From: a virus
Taxonomy: Duplodnaviria > Heunggongvirae > Uroviricota > Caudoviricetes
Virus record (IMG/VR): IMGVR_UViG_3300029214_000136
Location: 1-7,521 of that record
Length of the DNA: 7,521 nucleotides
Reading direction: 5' to 3' (one strand)
Shown here: in pieces, positions 1 to 7,521 of the stretch
Position numbering within the stretch: position 1 is the first letter of the stretch
Layout of the letters: each line of letters starts with the position of its first letter
Made by a program: the position numbers and the translations under genes
Notes under the pieces: model-generated
Database searches by the model: none
What the model saw: the letters and a program-made list of their open reading frames with translations, nothing else
Told to the model about the DNA's origin: nothing

Positions 1-165
1 TTACATGTTCTTGATGATCGCATCACCAAATTCTGAACATTTCAGCAGTTTAGCGCCTTCCATCAGACGCTCGAAGTCATAGGTTACGGTCTTCGCATTG
101 ATTGCGCCTTCCATACCTTTAACAATCAGGTCTGCGGCTTCAGTCCAGCCCATATGGCGTAACAT
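1..165 (-). pseudogene. icdC: 3' fragment of the isocitrate dehydrogenase gene (about 55 codons), an att-associated remnant like icdC of e14
   Basis: Minus-strand translation of 1-165 reads [54 protein letters not shown], which matches the C-terminus of E. coli Icd as I remember it. The frame closes with an in-frame stop just upstream (169-171), so it cannot be part of an intact gene. The spacing to mcrA (~230 bp) is as I recall for the e14 right end in K-12. Confidence 0.85.
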
Positions 166-398
166 TAGTTAGATGACTAAATCGTAACTATTTGACATAG
201 CAACATAATTTTACTAATTTGCATATAACTCATTAGCTCTTAGCATTTCCATAACTCATTGATTATCAACATGTGTTTTTGAGTTTTGATAACCATTTTT
301 AGCATAAAAATAGCAGTTAACATTTGCAGAAGTTAAGATCAGAGAAAATTTTTACCCTGTAGGGTATTACGTCTTAAATGTGACTTTAATAAACAATT

Positions 399-1232
399 TT
401 ATTTCTGTAATCGGTTTATATTAACGTAAAGCATCTCGATTAGTTCTTTTGCATTTTTACTATAGTGCAATTCTCTATGGCAATTCGGACAAAGGGCAAC
501 ACAGTTATCTGTTGTATCAGCACCACCTGAAGACAGGGGAATTACATGATGCACTTCCAAGTATGGGCTTCCATCATTTAAATAAAACGGAGCATTTTTA
601 CCACAGTTTTCACATATACCTTTACTTTGCTGTAAAATCCAAGCTTTTACCATTGGGTCTCGGACATAAACTTTTTGTAGTCTTTCTACCTCAACTGGTT
701 TCCTGGAGCCCTCGGGTTGACTCAACGTTTTCTTAATTAATTTATTAACCCTCATATTCAGAAGCGATTCATCATCTGTAGGCTGTGAAAGCTCTGATAG
801 TTCTCCATGTATTATAGACGCCCAAAAACTGTCACTATAAATACCTGGAACATTTATCAATATTCGTTTCGTTCTATTGCCGGAAGGAATTTCCTTTCTC
901 CCCGTACGACTAAAATAAGCCTGATAACCACACATCTTCAAGCGTATATCGCGGGGGCTATTACCAATCAAAGTAAAATATTCACCAGGATGGATTTTTC
1001 TTTCATCCAAAGAATGCATATGTTTTCTGACTAATGATGACGCCAGATATACTACGACTTGGGATACACCAGAATCAACCAACCGTTCAATGATATAATC
1101 AAGAGCGATATTGTAATCTTTGTTTCTGTCACCCGGCCCCCACGACTCAAGGATTAGACCATAAACGCCATCCTCTTCACCTATCGAACACTCAGCTTTC
1201 AGTTCAATTCCATTATTATCAAAAACATGCAT
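399..1232 (-). CDS. mcrA: McrA, 5-methylcytosine-specific type IV restriction endonuclease (HNH nuclease), 277 aa
   Basis: The translation from the ATG at 1232 begins MHVFDNNGIELKAE and carries the C-terminal HNH motif CENCGKNAPF...EVHHVIPLSSGGADTTDNCVALCPNCHRELH. The ORF track begins 5 codons earlier at a TTG (1247); I prefer the ATG at 1232. Confidence 0.93.
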   Translation of the reverse strand: MHVFDNNGIELKAECSIGEEDGVYGLILESWGPGDRNKDYNIALDYIIERLVDSGVSQVVVYLASSLVRKHMHSLDERKIHPGEYFTLIGNSPRDIRLKMCGYQAYFSRTGRKEIPSGNRTKRILINVPGIYSDSFWASIIHGELSELSQPTDDESLLNMRVNKLIKKTLSQPEGSRKPVEVERLQKVYVRDPMVKAWILQQSKGICENCGKNAPFYLNDGSPYLEVHHVIPLSSGGADTTDNCVALCPNCHRELHYSKNAKELIEMLYVNINRLQK

Positions 1233-1338
1233 AATATTAATCTTCAATCAATTTTTTACGACAATACTACTTTTATTGATAAAATTGCAACAAGTTGCTG
1301 TTGTTTTATTTTCTTTTGTACACAAAGTGTCTTTAACT

Positions 1339-1893
1339 TTATTTATCCTCTGCAGGAAACCTCTTATACAAAGTTGACACACCAACATCATAGATAATCG
1401 CCACCTTCTGGCGAGGAACTCCTGATGCAATTAATCGTCCGGCCTGTGCCCATTGTTCTGGTGTAAGTTTGGGACGACGTCCACCAATTCGCCCCTGTGC
1501 GCGAGCAGCTTCCAGTCCAGCTTTTGTTCGTTCAACAATCAGTTCACGCTCCATTTCAGCCAAGGCACCCATCACATGAAAGAAAAAGCGTCCCATTGGT
1601 GTGCTGGTATCAATTGAATCCGTCAGACTACGAAAGCTGATGCCTCGTTCGCGCAACTCCTCCACCAACACGACAAGATGCCGCATACTACGCCCCAGCC
1701 GATCCAGCTTCCAGACAACCAGAGTGTCACCTGCCGATAATGTCCTGAGCAGTTTTTTCAGTCCCGGCCTTTCGGACTTTGTGCCGCTTATCTTGTCTTC
1801 AAAAATCAGCTCGCATCCTGCACAGTTCAGCGCATTACGTTGTAGATCTGTGTTCTGGTCATTTGTTGATACGCGTACATAGCCAATAAGCAT
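1339..1893 (-). CDS. pinE: Pin serine recombinase (DNA invertase of the Gin/Hin/Pin family), 184 aa
   Basis: The translation MLIGYVRVSTNDQNTDLQRNAL...GRRPKLTPEQWAQAGRLIASGVPRQKVAIIYDVGVSTLYKRF has the resolvase catalytic N-domain with the serine in YVRVST and a C-terminal helix-turn-helix. A GGGGGAG ribosome-binding site lies about 6 nt upstream of the ATG at 1893; the track's longer ORF to 1929 is probably an over-extension. Confidence 0.93.
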   Translation of the reverse strand: MLIGYVRVSTNDQNTDLQRNALNCAGCELIFEDKISGTKSERPGLKKLLRTLSAGDTLVVWKLDRLGRSMRHLVVLVEELRERGISFRSLTDSIDTSTPMGRFFFHVMGALAEMERELIVERTKAGLEAARAQGRIGGRRPKLTPEQWAQAGRLIASGVPRQKVAIIYDVGVSTLYKRFPAEDK

Positions 1894-1919
1894 GGTAGCT
1901 CCCCCTGACAAAAGCAGGA

Positions 1920-2294
1920 ATGATGCCATTTGCTCGTTATTTCTGCATTTTCATAAACGTTGGTTTGGGAGAAGCGGCAAAACGAAATGTGGGAACAGGG
2001 GAAAATCAGATACCTGATATGTCATCATATGCATCAGGTTCAGGCTGGCGAAAAATGCCAGATGGTTCAATTGAACAGTGGGGACGAATTAGTTTTCCTG
2101 GTGAACACGGGCCTGTATCCGCCAATGTTTCATTCCCGATTCCATTTACACAGACACCGGGCATTGTAATTGTGTGCGATGGTGGTTTCGGGGGCGGGAA
2201 TATGTGGGGGGCGACCAACTGGAGCACTACCGGCTTCATAGCTCACTGCAATTATGGTCTTGAAGGTGGTGCGTTTTTCGCTAAGGGCTGGTAA
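1920..2294 (+). CDS. stfE: Side tail fibre variable C-terminal cassette (stf', promoterless alternative segment in this orientation)
   Basis: The ORF ends ...[36 protein letters not shown], is Gly-rich like tail-fibre tips, and its stop overlaps the start of the downstream tfa gene (TAATGATG). The functional 5' boundary is probably the pix crossover at 1948-1973 rather than the ATG at 1920. Confidence 0.7.
1948..1973. other. pix/gix/hix-type 26-bp crossover site for the Pin invertase
   Basis: The sequence TTTTCATAAACGTTGGTTTGGGAGAA is the reverse complement of TTCTCCCAAACCAACGTTTATGAAAA, which fits the imperfect dyad of hix/gix sites (TTCT...AAACC-AA-GGTTT...GA.AA). It lies next to the pin 5' end and inside the 5' end of the tail-fibre cassette, as in G/P inversion systems. 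Confidence 0.7.
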
Positions 2295-2737
2295 TGATGA
2301 AATATCTGTACGTAAACAACCTGGCATATCCTTACGAACTTCAGTCTCTTTATGTTGAAAAAGGTGAATGGCCTGAAGAAAAAGGTGTTGATATAGACGA
2401 AGTAATTTTCAGGGAATATTTCTATGATACACCACCAGAAGGAAAATACAGATGTGTCGGAGAGGATGGACTGCCTGCATGGGCAGATATTCCTCCACCA
2501 ACACGTGAAGAACAAATTGCATCAGCCGAAACTAAAAAGCAGCAATTGATTAACCAGGCCAACGAATACATAAACAGTAAACAATGGCCAGGTAAAGCAT
2601 CAATTGGTCGTCTGAAAGGTGAGGAACTGGCGCAATATAATTTGTGGCTGGATTATCTGGACGCACTGGAACTGGTCGATACTTCCGGTGCGCCAGATAT
2701 TGAATGGTCTACGCCTCCGGCAGTTCAGGCCAGATGA
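2294..2737 (+). CDS. tfaE: Tail fibre assembly protein (Tfa chaperone)
   Basis: The translation [17 protein letters not shown]...YNLWLDYLDALELVDTSGAPDIEWSTPP is the conserved Tfa family pattern, and the gene is coupled to the stf cassette by a TAA/ATG overlap. The true start may be the second ATG at 2297. The symbol is assigned from position next to pinE as in e14. Confidence 0.8.
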   Translation: MMKYLYVNNLAYPYELQSLYVEKGEWPEEKGVDIDEVIFREYFYDTPPEGKYRCVGEDGLPAWADIPPPTREEQIASAETKKQQLINQANEYINSKQWPGKASIGRLKGEELAQYNLWLDYLDALELVDTSGAPDIEWSTPPAVQAR

Positions 2738-2770
2738 CGTCCGGCGCTGTGCTGGTAATCGCGGTTAATC

Positions 2771-2798
2771 NNNNNNNNNNNNNNNNNNNNNNNNNNNN
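2771..2798. other. Run of 28 N: assembly or scaffold gap of unknown true length
   Basis: Directly visible. It truncates the endolysin 3' end and places an invertible tail-fibre cassette next to a lysis cassette with nothing between. Confidence 0.95.
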
Positions 2799-3239
2799 TT
2801 TGAATTTTGCAATCAGGCTGTCAGCCTTATGCTCGAACTGACCATAACCAGCGCCCGGCAGTGAAGCCCAGATATTGCTGCAACGGTCGATAGCCTGACG
2901 AATATCACCGCGATCAATCATCGGTAAAGCGCCACGCTCTTTAATCTGTTGCAGTGCCACAGCGTCCTGGCTTTTCGGAGAGAAGTCTTTCAGGCCAAGC
3001 TGCTTGCGGTAAGCATCCCACCAGCGTGAAAGAAGTTGATAACGGCCTGCAGCTGTTGATTTGAGTTTCGGGTTTAGCGTGACAAGTTTGCGAGGGTGAT
3101 CGGAGTAATCAGTGAAGAGTTCTCCACCGACAATAACGTCATAACCGTGGTTACGTGTCGGTTGTCGCCCGTTATCCGTTCCCTCTGACCATGCCACCAT
3201 ATCCAGGAAAGCTTTACGCTGGGAATTTAGTACCTGCAT
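2799..3239 (-). CDS. R: Phage endolysin, lambda R-like lytic transglycosylase, 3' end lost in the N gap
   Basis: The translation MQVLNSQRKAFLDMVAWSEGTDNGRQPTRNHGYDVIVGGELFTDYSDHPRKLVTLNPKLKS...GQFEHKADSLIAKFK is nearly collinear with lambda R as I remember it. An RBS TAAGGAG precedes the ATG at 3239. The track ORF runs through the Ns to 2709; that extension is an artefact. Confidence 0.9.
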
Positions 3240-3242
3240 AAA

Positions 3243-3569
3243 TTACTCCTTAGAGCCACCAAACTTGTTACCGATTACTCTCATTGCAGCCCCACGAATA
3301 GCATCAACACCGATCAGCCCCACCCCACCACCAATGGCAACAGATAGTGATTTAGGCCATCCGACATACTCAAGAGCGGATGCAAAAGTCAGCGTCAGAG
3401 CGCCACAGAGTAGAATTTCGAGTGTTTTTCGCTTCCAGCCGCCACCACCGCCAAAATAGGCAATACGTAAACCAGCCATAACAATCGACATAATCACTGC
3501 GCCCAGCGGTGTGTCTCCACGCCACCAGCTCTGGACCAACTCCAGCCATGTATTTGGGTTATGAGGCAT
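3243..3569 (-). CDS. Putative holin (class I-like, lambda S-type topology), 108 aa
   Basis: It lies immediately upstream of the endolysin, with its stop 3 nt from the endolysin ATG. The protein is small with hydrophobic stretches (GAVIMSIVMAGLRIAYFGGGGGW, LEILLCGALTLTFASAL, SVAIGGGVGLIGV) and a charged C-terminal tail, resembling lambda S in the region MAGLRIAYFGGG versus MAYLRGRYNGG. Confidence 0.7.
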   Translation of the reverse strand: MPHNPNTWLELVQSWWRGDTPLGAVIMSIVMAGLRIAYFGGGGGWKRKTLEILLCGALTLTFASALEYVGWPKSLSVAIGGGVGLIGVDAIRGAAMRVIGNKFGGSKE

Positions 3570-3707
3570 TTGTAGTTATCTCTCACCTCGCTGATACAGC
3601 AGGTGCAAATTGAGGAAACATCATGTACCGCAAATCAGAAGCGGAAACGTCAAAGAAGCCGAGTCAATGGATAACTGCGGGATAGGCTAGGACCAAGGAA
3701 TCCCCAG

Positions 3708-3743
3708 ACCCAGAAACGACAAAACCCGCTCGATGGCGGGTTT
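3708..3743 (-). terminator. Intrinsic terminator on the minus strand, in the tR' position upstream of the holin
   Basis: An 8-bp GC-rich stem AAACCCGC/GCGGGTTT (3722-3729 and 3736-3743) with loop TCGATG is followed on the minus strand by TTTTGTCGTTTCT. On the plus strand the stem is followed by only TTT, so it is mainly minus-strand directed. Confidence 0.5.
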
Positions 3744-3745
3744 AA

Positions 3746-3860
3746 GCTGTGTGGCGAAGTGAGCACACTTAACAGATTACGATATTTTTTGCGTACGCGT
3801 TAGTGTTTTGATAGAATTTTCAGCCACATAAAAATTCATTCTTATAATTCGGGATATATA
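3746..3860 (+). promoter_or_regulatory. Divergent intergenic control region: candidate promoter for the ORF A/B operon, and possibly the late promoter for the lysis genes on the other strand
   Basis: A consensus TATAAT hexamer lies at 3843-3848, with TTGATA at 3808-3813 but at non-canonical spacing. The palindrome GCGTACGC(GT) lies at 3791-3800 and GGGA lies 7-10 nt before the ATG at 3861. The exact promoter elements are not resolved. Confidence 0.3.
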
Positions 3861-5036
3861 ATGGATATAACTTGTTTAGAATGTGGCAATGTTCTTGACG
3901 ACCCAACTGTAGCTTGCGATAAATGCGGTGCCACGCCTCATGTTGTAGTGCTGGGCAAACAATCGTACTTTCCTATTGGTGCTGTAACAGCAAATCTTGA
4001 AAAAAATGATTCAAGAGCATTTGATTATCGATTAGGTGAAGTTTGGGATCTAAAAAATGAAGTCACATCTGAATTCATAACCAGAATTGAGAAAAAATTT
4101 AGCCGAAAAAACAAATTTCATAACTTCCTAGACTCAGATCACAACCCTTCATCCATTCCTACGATCCTAAAAAAATACATTAATAAAAATAATGAATTCA
4201 TTGATTTATCTAGAGCTATAATAGAGAAGCTTAAACATAATGCTAATAACGAATCGAGAGTTGCCCAACTTCAGGGGGGGAGCGTTGTTTTCATCCACTA
4301 TAAGTCTACCGAACCAGAGGATTTGGGGAAACTTCTAATCGTAATGGTTGATAAACAAAGCGCCTATGACTTTGATTCGGATAAGTTGACCCCAACAAGA
4401 TTAAATCCAATTAATACCGATGCCTTACGGCAGGCTGCGATGTTCGATTTAACTTTATTCGAAGCCAGTTATCCAGAAAACAAGGGTGACTCATATGTAC
4501 ATTTCTTGCAAGGTAAATCTAAAAGCGATTTTTTCAAAGACTCATTAGGTTGCCGACATGATTCGGACAATAAAAGAAGCATTCAGCAATTATTCAGTGC
4601 TATAGATATTTTTGCTAGTAAAAACTCACTCGGTCGTGTACTGCGTGATACTATTGACAATGAAGTTAAATCCTTACTGGAAAAAAAATCAAAAGATAAA
4701 CACGGAAATAAGTCCGTTAAGATAGAGGATATTTCAAAAATAATTGACTCATGCCTGACTGATTCACACAAATGTAAGGGAACGTTTGTCGATTTTGTTA
4801 ATCTTAATGGTTTCCAGATTGACCCTCAATTTGAACCAACTCCTAAAGCAGCTGAAAGCGCGCTTACAATTGAAGTGGCAGATAACGACAATAATTTTAA
4901 GTTGAAAATAATGCGTGGAGCTATTGGAGACGAAAAGTCAAATAAGCCTGTAATTCTCACTGACAACAAATGCGAAATTGTGATAAAATTGAGTCAGGCA
5001 AATTATGATGAACTCAAAAGATATAGAGACAGCTAA
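3861..5036 (+). CDS. Hypothetical protein (391 aa): N-terminal CxxC-x10-CxxC zinc ribbon fused to a domain resembling nucleoid-associated protein NdpA/YejK
   Basis: The ORF is long and uninterrupted. Cysteines lie at residues 5, 8, 19 and 22 (CLECGNVLDDPTVACDKCG). The segment GGSVVFIHY...LLIVMVDK...LNPINTDALRQAAMFDLTLFE...YVHFLQGKSKSDFFKDSLGC aligns by eye with E. coli YejK GGFVLFCHY...LLVAVLSN...LDINHADIVARIDLTEWE...[23 protein letters not shown]. Composition is AT-rich and Lys/Asn-rich. Confidence 0.8.
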   Translation: MDITCLECGNVLDDPTVACDKCGATPHVVVLGKQSYFPIGAVTANLEKNDSRAFDYRLGEVWDLKNEVTSEFITRIEKKFSRKNKFHNFLDSDHNPSSIPTILKKYINKNNEFIDLSRAIIEKLKHNANNESRVAQLQGGSVVFIHYKSTEPEDLGKLLIVMVDKQSAYDFDSDKLTPTRLNPINTDALRQAAMFDLTLFEASYPENKGDSYVHFLQGKSKSDFFKDSLGCRHDSDNKRSIQQLFSAIDIFASKNSLGRVLRDTIDNEVKSLLEKKSKDKHGNKSVKIEDISKIIDSCLTDSHKCKGTFVDFVNLNGFQIDPQFEPTPKAAESALTIEVADNDNNFKLKIMRGAIGDEKSNKPVILTDNKCEIVIKLSQANYDELKRYRDS

Positions 5037-5038
5037 TA

Positions 5039-6253
5039 ATGACAATTGCTGATGACTTATCAAGATTAGCGCAGATTATTAACGGAGCCTCAAGCAGAGT
5101 TGAGGGCTACTACACTGTCATAAGTCTTGAAGAAAGCATTGTTATTGTAAATAGTTCTGAAATAATTAGACTGTTACAATCTATAGGTTATAAAAAGGCA
5201 ACAACCTGCATCGAAAATAATGAAATTTGGCTAGATCGCCAAGCTTCATCTTGGGATGATGCTATAATTTATGAGAATGTTGAGTCTTTTTGGTCTAGAG
5301 TAAACACCCAAAACGCTCTTCCGAAAAATTATATCATCGGAACGCCGTTAATACTCCCTACTTCTAAGAATGAAAGCATCGAAAAAATCCATATTTTCTT
5401 TATGTGGAAAGATATCCTTTCATTAATTTCTGATCATCATAACAGTGACTGCTCTGTCTTATTTTTCACCAATGAAGACAAAAGTTATACAGTCGAACTC
5501 ACGCATTTTTTACAATATAGCGAGATTAATCGCTTATCGAACTCGTCTCTTAAATATGAAATTATAAAGGAGCTTCTCGACACAATAAAAATCAATGATT
5601 TACACAAAAGCGAGCGCAAGCTCGTTATACGCTCAGCCATAAACGAAGTATTTAAAGCAAATGGTACGTTCAATTTCTTTGACTTGCTTAACTCTACTGA
5701 ACTCGTCAGGAAAAAATATGATGAACTATATGAGATTTACACAAAGAGGTTTTCTGTAAATAAAATTCTTAACGAACTCGATGAGAAAAATCTTGAGTTC
5801 ACGAGTAAAATTAACGAATTCATATCATCTAATCAGACAAAAGCATTGACTATTCCCGGTGCATTAATAGCAGCTGGTGGCTTAGTGAAGGCTAATGAAA
5901 CAACCGAAGCAATATTGATTATCGCAGGACTTTGGATGATAAAAAAAGTCAATTACATTTCTATTGAGATATTCAATGAAACATTCGACAACTTACGTTC
6001 TCGAGTGGAGTCCGCTTTCGATAAGTATTTAAAGTTTGAAGAAAATAAAGAAATCAAAGATAATGCAGATAGTATTAAGAGTAGCATTACAGGTTTGATT
6101 GATAAAGCTAAAAAAAGGATGAGAACTGTTAAATATCTCGCATCAGCCATGTTTTATGGAGGCCTTATTTACGTTGGATATAAACAGTTCCCAGTCTTTT
6201 TTGAAAAATCGGCAGTAAATCTATTTTATTTTTTATGCCATACTATAAGCTAA
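5039..6253 (+). CDS. Hypothetical protein (404 aa) with hydrophobic, possibly membrane-associated segments; translationally coupled to ORF A
   Basis: The start ATG is 2 nt after the ORF A stop (TAATAATG). Hydrophobic stretches occur at about residues 268-300 (ALTIPGALIAAGGLV...AILIIAGLWMI) and 366-380 (LASAMFYGGLIYVGY). I recognise no catalytic motif. Confidence 0.8.
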   Translation: MTIADDLSRLAQIINGASSRVEGYYTVISLEESIVIVNSSEIIRLLQSIGYKKATTCIENNEIWLDRQASSWDDAIIYENVESFWSRVNTQNALPKNYIIGTPLILPTSKNESIEKIHIFFMWKDILSLISDHHNSDCSVLFFTNEDKSYTVELTHFLQYSEINRLSNSSLKYEIIKELLDTIKINDLHKSERKLVIRSAINEVFKANGTFNFFDLLNSTELVRKKYDELYEIYTKRFSVNKILNELDEKNLEFTSKINEFISSNQTKALTIPGALIAAGGLVKANETTEAILIIAGLWMIKKVNYISIEIFNETFDNLRSRVESAFDKYLKFEENKEIKDNADSIKSSITGLIDKAKKRMRTVKYLASAMFYGGLIYVGYKQFPVFFEKSAVNLFYFLCHTIS

Positions 6254-6589
6254 CATTGCTAAACAGCCATCAACAAACCCCATTGCAGTTTGCAGTTCCT
6301 TCCTAATTGTGCCATCAGAGCATTTTCTCTTCTTCGCAATAGTGCGTAATGAGATACCGATAACAAAGTGGGCGATGATGAGCTCATATTCCTCTGGTTT
6401 ATACCTTCTCAACCGAGCCACACAACTGTCTATCATGATGCCTTCGTCATCATCACACTGAATCCGTGACTTTTTGCCATGAGGTAAAAGTCCCTTGAAA
6501 CCAGCCGCTATCGGCTGCCAGTCCACTCCGCTATTGTCTGAAGCAGCCCAAGCTCCCCAACGATCCATTACTTCATACATATCACGCAT
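6233..6589 (-). CDS. Late-gene antiterminator of the Q family (QuuD / phage 82 Q-like), 118 aa
   Basis: The translation MRDMYEVMDRWGAWAA...WQPIAAGFKGLLP...RIQCDDDEGIMIDSCVARL...CSDGTIRKELQTAMGFVDGCL matches the pattern I recall for QuuD (LERWGAWAA...IAAGFKGL...CDDD...CSDG...LQKAEG). The ATG at 6589 has a GGAGA RBS; the track ORF begins at a TTG at 6604. Confidence 0.85.
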   Translation of the reverse strand: MRDMYEVMDRWGAWAASDNSGVDWQPIAAGFKGLLPHGKKSRIQCDDDEGIMIDSCVARLRRYKPEEYELIIAHFVIGISLRTIAKKRKCSDGTIRKELQTAMGFVDGCLAMLAYSMA

Positions 6590-6606
6590 CAACTTTCTCC
6601 ACAAAA

Positions 6607-7506
6607 TCAGGCCAGCACACCAATTGCCAGCGCACGATCGATAAAACGAAATATCAACTCCAGCTGGGAGCCATACTTCTCTTCAAATGCCACGGTATCC
6701 GCATGCAGCTCGTCGTGATGCTTTCTGCACAAAGGCAGCACAAAGAATCGGGATTCGAAGAAATGCGGCTGCGTCTCGCGCGGATTTGCGGGACTGGTGA
6801 TGTTCTTGCCGAACATGCAGCCTTTCGCCGTCAGCGACCAGAATTTTTTGATGTTGTTAATCGCGGTACGGCTGTATCGTTCGCGCTGCTCGACGATCCC
6901 CAGCTTCACCATCTGGTGATATGCCTGATTAGCTGTCAGGCGGATACCATACTGCTTCAGCAGTGCACTCAGTGACAGCGTGGGGCGGCTTGAGCCATCA
7001 GGCGCGTCAGCAGGAGCATCAATGGCATAGCGCGGTGCCAGATTCGGTAAGCCAACAGCCTCCTGGAGTTTCTGACAGGCTCCAAGCACTGAAGAGTTAG
7101 ACAGATTTAACTCCCGGCGCATAAAGTCCAGCAGAATCACGCCAGCCTGCATCTTGTCAGCAGCCTGTCCGGATAATTTTTCAGGTGCGCTGGTTACCAT
7201 GTCGAAAGTACGGATCACCTTCAGATGGAATGACGGGCTGATCCACATTGCATAGGCATACACCAGTTCTTTGCAGACATACGTCCCCTGGTTATTTCCG
7301 CCACGAATAACGTTAACTGGCTCTATATTGACCGAGTTGCAAATCTGCAACTCGCTTATTAAACGTTCAGTTTGCTCATTGCGGAGCCAGAATGCAGGCT
7401 TATGCTTATCCAGAGAACCGGCAGCCCTGTGCAGATCGTTCAGGCTGTAACGACCATAAGCATCACGACGAACTTCAATACCATCAATGACCATCAGATT
7501 ATTCAT
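6607..7506 (-). CDS. KilA-N domain protein (phage antirepressor or Roi-like), 299 aa
   Basis: The N-terminus MNNLMVIDGIEVRRDAYGRYSLNDLHRAAG...KPAFWLRNEQTERLI fits the KilA-N pattern. A GAGGAG RBS lies upstream of the ATG at 7506, and the stop at 6607-6609 leaves about 17 nt before the Q start at 6589. Its position just upstream of Q is typical for lambdoid nin/ant region genes. Confidence 0.7.
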   Translation of the reverse strand: MNNLMVIDGIEVRRDAYGRYSLNDLHRAAGSLDKHKPAFWLRNEQTERLISELQICNSVNIEPVNVIRGGNNQGTYVCKELVYAYAMWISPSFHLKVIRTFDMVTSAPEKLSGQAADKMQAGVILLDFMRRELNLSNSSVLGACQKLQEAVGLPNLAPRYAIDAPADAPDGSSRPTLSLSALLKQYGIRLTANQAYHQMVKLGIVEQRERYSRTAINNIKKFWSLTAKGCMFGKNITSPANPRETQPHFFESRFFVLPLCRKHHDELHADTVAFEEKYGSQLELIFRFIDRALAIGVLA

Positions 7507-7521
7507 ACTTCGTTTCTCCTC

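Follow-up and report, generated by a model that had tools for sequence, protein, structure and literature searches.

The 7,521-nt stretch of DNA analyzed here, hereafter the window, comes from a virus of the Caudoviricetes (IMG/VR record IMGVR_UViG_3300029214_000136, positions 1 to 7,521) and carries, between its gene for the antiterminator Q and its lysis cassette, an AT-rich two-gene insert that is almost certainly the anti-phage system DS-1 with its defense function. The Q gene (6233–6589/6604, minus strand) is recognized by PF06530 (E = 3e-47), and the first gene of the lysis cassette, encoding the lambda-family holin S (3243–3569, minus strand), is recognized by PF05106 (6e-25) and by its RefSeq annotation in loci L001–L004 of our comparison set. 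The distance from the Q stop to the holin start is 2663 bp by coordinates, in agreement with an initial annotation, made from the letters alone, that had placed these two minus-strand genes ∼2.66 kb apart. The interval is filled by two coupled plus-strand open reading frames (ORFs), ORF1 (the DS-1A gene, 3861–5036, 391 amino acids (aa)) and ORF2 (the DS-1B gene, 5039–6253, 404 aa), whose lengths and 2-nt spacer (junction ...AGC TAA TA ATG...) are all as first described. ORF2 and Q are convergent and share 21 nt at their 3′ ends (6233–6253). The AT-rich composition that had been judged by eye is confirmed on computation, with a G+C of 0.348 over 3861–6253 against 0.497 and 0.496 in the flanks (2709–3569 and 6254–7521, respectively), as is the richness of the proteins in Lys, Asn, and Ile (10.5, 7.2, and 7.2% of ORF1; 8.4, 7.4, and 11.6% of ORF2). 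The statement that the pair runs opposite to every flanking phage gene is correct for Q and the holin but not for the tail-fiber and tfa genes further to the left, which lie on the plus strand as well. An Rfam scan of the window matched no family.

DS-1 was described by DeWeirdt, Mahoney, and Laub in “DefensePredictor” (bioRxiv 10.1101/2025.01.08.631726, January 2025; Science, April 2026, PMC13092281), where Table S6 lists it under the working id D390 as WP_000355468.1 plus WP_000150292.1 with the entry “defensive TRUE” (PMC13092281). ORF1 is identical to DS-1A (WP_000355468.1) at 391 of 391 positions, and ORF2 is identical to DS-1B (WP_000150292.1) at 398 of the 399 residues printed in Table S8, the last 5 being left out of the comparison; the one substitution, a conservative one, is S131A, with S131 in the window allele. 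The gene order, A then B, and the 2-nt coupling are the same, and there is no substantive difference between the two operons. The profile search that had been proposed for both proteins leads to the same place. Two curated equivalog models in NCBIfam release 20 are matched over their full lengths and above their cut-offs, NF053868 (DS1_1_antiphage, “nucleoid-associated anti-phage protein”) by residues 10–377 of ORF1 with 451.4 bits (cut-off 330) and NF053869 (DS1_2_antiphage) by residues 46–378 of ORF2 with 375.3 bits (cut-off 315). The RefSeq accessions found under 100%-identical DNA matches are WP_000355468.1 and WP_000150293.1/292.1, and some recent RefSeq records name the genes “nucleoid-associated anti-phage protein” and “anti-phage protein”. 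The published source of DS-1 is a draft ECOR-type assembly (NZ_RRVY01000002.1), and the paper is silent on both the genomic slot and the mechanism (PMC13092281).

The system is therefore not new; it is already published, validated, and curated. The initial annotation had presented the insert as an undescribed candidate system and had counted a match to a well-characterized one against that view. Such a match is what we find, in the DeWeirdt et al. description, in the NCBIfam models, and in the RefSeq records that annotate both genes, and the mechanism of DS-1 is still poorly characterized. Neither protein has a match in PADLOC-DB v2 (2023) at E up to 0.1; that release predates the description of DS-1, which is why the pair looked unnamed. 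The recognition of a defense cassette from raw sequence was a true positive, for a system already in print.

The defense function that we ascribe to the window allele is carried over from a near-identical published construct. The cloning experiment proposed in the initial annotation (native promoter, naive E. coli, phage panel) has in fact already been published for DS-1; in that work, MG1655 carrying DS-1 and its native promoter on a low-copy plasmid was exposed to 24 phages (PMC13092281). The reductions in efficiency of plating (EOP) given in Table S7, as −log(EOP), are 7.6 for Bas01, 2.7 for Bas26 (with small plaques), 1.7 for Bas03, 1.7 for T3, 1.0 for T5, and 0.9 for T7 (with small plaques); SECphi27 formed small plaques only, and the restriction is marked as replicated (PMC13092281). 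Together with the match to DS-1, these reductions bear out the anti-phage role that had been suggested for the insert. Bas01 and Bas03 are Drexlerviridae of the same subfamily and Bas26 belongs to the Demerecviridae, while the other targets include T7-like phages. No effect of DS-1 on T4-like phages or on lambda is recorded in Table S7, the 26 mentions of D390 all being the listed rows and file names. In the main text of the paper, DS-1 comes up only where a “YejK nucleoid-associated domain” is named among the new validations in defense (PMC13092281).

DS-1A has the two parts that had been read into it at first sight, a zinc ribbon and an NdpA-like domain. The NA37 (YejK-type) domain occupies residues 64–376 (4050–4988, plus strand; PF04245, E = 1.2e-23, 84.5 bits against a cut-off of 24.6). 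The N-terminal zinc-ribbon motif, CLEC...CDKC (a CxxC...CxxC pattern at residues 5–22; 3873–3926, plus strand), was read from the sequence; the Pfam model Zn_Ribbon_1 is sub-threshold in this region (E = 0.07), and the predicted local distance difference test score (pLDDT) of the AlphaFold2 (AF2) model is low there (48–64), with a value of 86 for the protein. The ribbon is present in 27 of 59 DS-1A family members, which constitute the Enterobacterales clade. DS-1A also has a conserved region, DALRQAAMFDL, that contains basic residues such as R190. In structure searches the sole significant relative in the PDB is E. coli YejK (9be2; Foldseek E = 1.9e-14, ∼19% identity), and profile comparison with it gives E = 1.8e-19 over ∼280 residues; the protein also matches phrog_3767. 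DS-1A and YejK/NdpA (9be2, PF04245, NF001557) thus have the NA37 fold in common, but DS-1A differs in its added N-terminal zinc ribbon, its longer C-terminus, and its genetic setting, in which a mobile element carries it as part of an operon that also encodes a membrane protein. We rejected the assignment of DS-1A as the housekeeping YejK itself, since it scores 81.4 bits against the YejK equivalog NF001557, where the cut-off is 341; with this score, the low identity, and the setting just described, it is a diverged paralogue that has been recruited to defense.

DS-1B is probably a membrane effector, judging from its predicted structure and hydropathy. Its AF2 model (pLDDT 83.6) begins with an N-terminal α/β domain of mixed helices and strands (residues 1–218; 5039–5692, plus strand; pLDDT ∼90) that is predicted to be soluble and is mildly acidic, with an isoelectric point (pI) of 5.2 and a net charge of −8 (family median −9). 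After residue 218 the model consists of four long helices (220–281, 288–332, 337–383, and 385–403). The most conserved core of the protein spans residues 225–285 (KKYDELYEIYTKRFSVNK...SKINEFISSNQTKALTIPGALIAAGGLVK; 5711–5893, plus strand) and holds 12 of the 18 invariant columns in a 45-member alignment. Family-averaged hydropathy peaks mark a hydrophobic helical hairpin at residues 269–283 and 288–306 with the loop KANETT (5843–5956, plus strand), which forms the tip between the first two of the long helices, and a C-terminal hydrophobic helix at residues 363–385 (6125–6193, plus strand). The hydrophobic segments noted at the outset in ORF2 correspond to these three helices, which are kept across the family; in 61 of 64 members, one or more windows of 19 residues reach a Kyte–Doolittle hydropathy of ≥1.6. 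DS-1B matches phrog_5023 at E = 5e-158. Pfam gave nothing above threshold for this protein (a SWIB hit at E = 0.09 was discarded), and sequence and profile searches of the PDB returned no match at E up to 1. Members of the ClyA family of α-pore-forming toxins (ClyA, AhlB, SmhB, MakA) are no more than a lead as relatives, since their matches fall short of significance and generic coiled coils do as well or better; DS-1B differs from this family in having the 218-residue α/β N-terminal domain and a third hydrophobic helix.

The initial annotation had treated the insert as variable cargo and had proposed that Q–S intervals of related prophages be compared. This comparison supports the insertion and moves its limits. 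Conservation of the flank with the cargo-swapped relatives L002–L004 ends at ∼3803–3809 and resumes at ∼6267 inside Q, and these alignments, taken with base composition, delimit a variable cassette of ∼2.46 kb with a G+C of ∼0.35 at 3804–6266 (boundaries ∼3804–3809 and ∼6267), not a segment starting at 3771 as first proposed. The cassette contains the DS-1 operon and its promoter region and, on the opposite strand, the last ∼11 codons of Q; the upper boundary falls within these codons, so that the 3′ end of Q swaps with the cassette. Approximately 280 further genomes share only ∼3571–3810 of the window. In those relatives, the same holin and a same-family Q flank other genes, which run opposite to the late strand and abut the Q stop. 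The related prophages therefore keep the flanks and carry other genes between them, as expected of variable cargo and not of core late-region genes.

The other occupants of the slot after Q are diverse. Strain 3-72 carries the PADLOC candidate PDC-M53A/B, CRE1493 carries two hypothetical proteins, and the extraintestinal pathogenic E. coli (ExPEC) strain XM carries a TIGR04255 protein with two hypothetical proteins. In the functional phages SfII and SfIV, the slot is occupied by unrelated two-gene cassettes, gp49–50 and gp48–49, respectively, and in the phage Stx2a_1447 Q is followed by a reverse-oriented two-gene cassette made of genes 23 and 24, a small ORF, a methylase, tRNAs, and stx2. In all, the slot holds at least six other reverse-oriented cassettes of two to three genes each (L002, 4410–5898; L003, 4279–5609; L004, 4400–6127; L010, which is SfII, 3285–4899; L011, which is SfIV, 2405–3827; and L028, which is Stx2a_1447, 4879–6442). 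Besides PDC-M53A/B and TIGR04255, they gave no significant Pfam, NCBIfam, or PADLOC match in a scan that covered all of these genes except the Stx2a_1447 cassette and SfIV gp48, and these cassettes are candidate uncharacterized defense systems. DS-1 itself is also found beside an identical Q allele in a different lambdoid background with tRNA genes downstream. Because sister phages hold unrelated cassettes in the slot, the phage life cycle can do without any one of them.

Directly downstream of the slot in the late-gene direction lies a conserved 89-bp unit (3721–3809, minus strand), identified by a terminator scan and by alignments, which comprises ∼65 bp followed by an intrinsic terminator hairpin (3722–3743) and a T-run. 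It occupies this place in every background examined, namely, the cargo-swapped relatives, SfII, SfIV, L005 (4001–4140) with its different downstream background, and Stx2a_1447 (L028, 6484–6571). From its position and conservation, we consider that the unit probably represents the late promoter (pR′), the Q-utilization site, and tR′. No sigma-70 consensus was found in it at the scan threshold, and a check by eye revealed only poor −35 elements, so that the pR′ assignment draws on position and conservation only. Since the slot is situated between Q and this putative late unit, the late transcript that depends on Q would not include the cassette, which would be served by a promoter of its own. 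A candidate sigma-70 promoter for the DS-1 operon, TTGATA-16-AAAAAT (3808–3835, plus strand; consensus scan 9/12), lies within the cassette and ends 26 nt short of the ATG of ORF1. It is weak, and because promoter-like sites are no commoner here than in shuffled sequence, we regard it only as a candidate. There is no terminator-like hairpin between the DS-1B and Q ends (6233–6253). Given this and the overlap of the two 3′ ends, early read-through of Q would run antisense across DS-1 at induction, and one may speculate that such antisense transcription could silence DS-1 in the lytic cycle of the phage itself.

The initial annotation had likened the insert to the Shiga toxin genes of Stx phages, and the comparison holds in part. 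By sequence, the window Q is in the same antiterminator family as Stx-phage Q, sharing 91.5% identity with its counterpart in Stx2a_1447 and ∼46% with those in other Stx phages, and in both cases accessory genes are inserted between a same-family Q and the lysis genes. The stx genes, however, are on the late strand, downstream of the promoter/terminator unit and inside the Q-dependent late transcript, whereas the DS-1 slot is upstream of that unit, directly after Q, and its cassette is read from the other strand, with a predicted promoter of its own. Stx2a_1447, the phage with the 91.5%-identical Q, has both kinds of cargo. A Q-dependent, stx-like moron was accordingly rejected as a description of DS-1, as the cassette is on the opposite strand and between Q and the 89-bp unit.

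The 2.66-kb interval is present at ≥99% identity in 106 of 5426 complete E. coli genomes (∼2%), among them avian pathogenic E. coli (APEC) O2-211, in which an intact e14-like prophage has the same Q–DS-1–holin order. The E. coli members of the DS-1B family in the protein database constitute one near-identical allele group. Beyond E. coli, a word-indexed search returned 69 DS-1B and 110 DS-1A clusters, chiefly from Enterobacterales, and an exhaustive profile search returned 782 DS-1B-family representatives at 50% identity (371 of them at E ≤ 1e-10), mostly ∼400 aa long and matched end to end. A DS-1B homologue occurs in 12 species-representative genomes, and wherever the sequence extends upstream of it, the adjacent gene on that strand encodes a DS-1A homologue (a contig end truncates one locus, and another has degraded remnants of both genes). 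These paired loci include Pseudomonas, Pseudoteredinibacter, Colwellia, and Thalassotalea; by sequence homology, conservation of the A–B pair extends across Gammaproteobacteria. In Pseudomonas aeruginosa, the second gene of the pair clearly encodes a homologue of DS-1B (hhalign probability 100%, E = 2e-57), and the Pseudoteredinibacter pair adjoins integrase, AAA_21, and AbiEii genes. With this conserved linkage and these mobile settings, the two genes form an obligate, mobile pair.

We note several further observations on the distribution of the pair. In P. aeruginosa (L007–L009, 6001–8422), the two genes overlap by 17 nt and stand beside a Pf-type filamentous prophage (Zot, DUF2523), an arrangement that suggests carriage of a DS-1-like pair by filamentous phages, or at their integration sites, as well. 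In NZ_OZ547033.1 and NZ_CP182203.1, IS1 and ISKpn26 insertions interrupt the interval with the DS-1 genes, and these would fit occasional inactivation of a costly system. The 64-kb “plasmid unnamed3” of E. coli MS 69-1 (L027) was examined as a possible phage-plasmid and rejected; it is a circular form of the same prophage, with many frameshifts and a split DS-1B, that probably reflects prophage excision or poor assembly quality.

Taken together, these features suggest to us a way in which DS-1 might act. As cargo of an e14/SfII-like lambdoid prophage with its own promoter opposite the late genes, DS-1 would be expressed in the lysogen independently of Q. DS-1A would reside on the host nucleoid via its NA37 domain, and certain phages would disturb or degrade the nucleoid, or provide a specific trigger, such that DS-1A is freed. 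Freed DS-1A would then bind the soluble N-terminal domain of DS-1B, whose hairpin and C-terminal helix would damage membrane integrity, and the infected cell would no longer support phage growth, which amounts to abortive infection. T5, T7, T3, and T1-like phages degrade host DNA, and T4-like phages also do so. By analogy with related systems, we give this combination of nucleoid sensor, membrane effector, and abortive infection roughly an even chance of being correct, and we consider the explanation as a whole, identity plus mechanism jointly, to be reasonably probable.

The analogy is with PANGU, a set of two-gene operons with a YejK-like nucleoid-associated protein (NAP) (Li et al., bioRxiv 10.64898/2026.04.06.716658, April 2026). 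The NAP of Type I PANGU binds long DNA without specificity; degradation of the chromosome by T4 nucleases releases it from the nucleoid, whereupon it binds and activates a toxSAS effector (10.64898/2026.04.06.716658). In the Type II system PANGU-Ecu, from uropathogenic E. coli (UPEC), the effector Pag2B combines an N-terminal acidic “DNA-mimic” (DMK) domain with a C-terminal transmembrane (TM) region; both genes are required, neither is toxic alone, and the outcome is abortive infection (10.64898/2026.04.06.716658). Upon infection, Pag2A fused to green fluorescent protein (GFP) leaves the nucleoid, and Pag2A binds the N-terminal domain of Pag2B with a dissociation constant (KD) of 19 nM, the action of the effector being left undetermined in that work (10.64898/2026.04.06.716658). 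As in DS-1, the YejK-like NAP gene (NA37, IPR007358) of Type II PANGU comes first, its partner gene is <40 bp away (2 nt in DS-1), the host is E. coli, and the function is anti-phage. The partner protein of Type II PANGU joins a soluble N-terminal domain to a membrane region at the C-terminus, an arrangement that AF2 and borderline hydropathy suggest for DS-1B as well. The sensor plus membrane effector acting by abortive infection that the initial annotation had envisaged agrees with this preprint on YejK-like two-gene systems, although for DS-1 itself the agreement is only by analogy.

Several points weigh against the nucleoid-release mechanism for DS-1. In the literature, we found no mechanistic experiment on DS-1, and Type II PANGU has been set beside it by architecture and description, not by sequence. 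The phage spectra differ, in that PANGU-Ecu acts on T4 and not on T1 or T5, whereas DS-1 acts on T1-like phages, T5 (weakly), and T3/T7 and has no T4 entry; in the preprint, both of the PANGU systems studied in depth restrict T4 and neither restricts T1 or T5 (10.64898/2026.04.06.716658). The expression systems differ as well, so that this contrast in spectrum is weak evidence. On the side of the effector, the pI of 5.2 of the DS-1B N-terminal domain is a weaker acidity than that of the Pag2B “DNA-mimic”, the hydrophobic segments of DS-1B are short (15–19 residues) and borderline (the best 19-residue window reaches 1.56), and fold searches with the DS-1B model gave no significant relative. Finally, the restriction of Bas01 and Bas03 differs by ∼6 logs within one subfamily, a gap that a specific trigger or a phage inhibitor fits better than generic sensing of genome degradation.

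A stronger claim, which overlaps with the explanation we favor, is that DS-1 is literally Type II PANGU, that is, that DS-1A and DS-1B are Pag2A and Pag2B and act by the same mechanism. We place this slightly short of an even chance. The host species and the architecture are the same; the DS-1B proteins of E. coli form one allele group, so that an E. coli member of the family would be DS-1B; and the large size of the family (782 representatives) fits the major cluster of the preprint, in which NAP operons fall into dozens of types with one major cluster (10.64898/2026.04.06.716658). With dozens of NAP operon types, though, E. coli may have another pair of NAP and TM protein, and the likeness in architecture in place of a sequence alignment, the discordant phage spectra, and the only mildly acidic N-terminal domain all count against the claim. 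Alternatively, DS-1 may be distinct from PANGU, triggered by a specific feature of T1-like phages and not by bulk degradation of the genome, and killing through a membrane effector whose fold has no solved relative.

The main rival is direct recognition, in which DS-1A, through its zinc ribbon and NA37 domain, recognizes incoming phage DNA or a phage protein and DS-1B, at the inner membrane, blocks DNA entry or an early step; this would amount to superinfection exclusion or targeted interference and need not involve suicide of the cell. The uneven spectrum speaks for such a mode, in particular the 7.6 logs for Bas01 next to the 1.7 logs for its relative Bas03 and the lack of a recorded effect on T4-like phages even though they degrade host DNA. 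The zinc ribbon, confined to the Enterobacterales clade, could add specificity, DS-1B is membrane-associated by prediction, and a prophage-borne location is typical for exclusion functions. The only mechanistic data on YejK-like pairs, however, point to relocation of the NAP and abortive infection, with which small plaques are common, and the restricted phages differ in receptors and injection routes, which makes a single injection block hard to fit. We consider direct recognition unlikely. That the pair is instead an accessory module for nucleoid remodeling, lysogeny, or late transcription, with the plating effect as a plasmid artifact, would fit the homology of DS-1A to a housekeeping nucleoid protein and the position of the cassette, which is next to the late regulatory region and shares sequence with the end of Q, but it is highly improbable given protection of up to 7.6 logs at low copy from the native promoter, homologous pairs outside prophages beside integrase, AbiEii, and AAA_21 genes, unrelated and hence dispensable cassettes in the slot of sister phages, and the failure of DS-1A to approach the YejK equivalog cut-off (81.4 of 341 bits).

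The remaining value of this locus lies in how DS-1 works, in how it relates to Type II PANGU, and in the uncharacterized cassettes of the slot after Q. It is tempting to view this slot as a hotspot of reverse-oriented defense cassettes, apparently undescribed, that are exchanged along with the 3′ end of Q, and to view DS-1 at the same time as differing in mechanism from the PANGU systems examined to date; we advance this combined view only tentatively and hold it to be rather doubtful. The proposed range of the hotspot may extend over lambdoid phages whose antiterminator is of this family, among them SfII, SfIV, e14-like prophages, and at least one Stx2a phage, and the slot, in Stx phages as well, could be mined for further defense systems.

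As a whole, the window represents a prophage that is composite or degraded. Its positions 1–2757 correspond to the right end of an e14-like prophage at icd, with the icd 3′ end, McrA, the PinE invertase, a tail-fiber C-terminus, and Tfa; McrA is a type IV restriction enzyme and scores 660 bits in PADLOC. A run of 28 N bases follows (2771–2798), through which the lysozyme ORF reads. No complete E. coli genome spans this junction, so that it reflects either a gap in the scaffold or the loss of ∼20 kb of structural genes by deletion. At the other end of the window, an 885-bp deletion relative to APEC O2-211 joins a KilA-N N-terminus to a DUF968 C-terminus in the ORF at 6607–7506.

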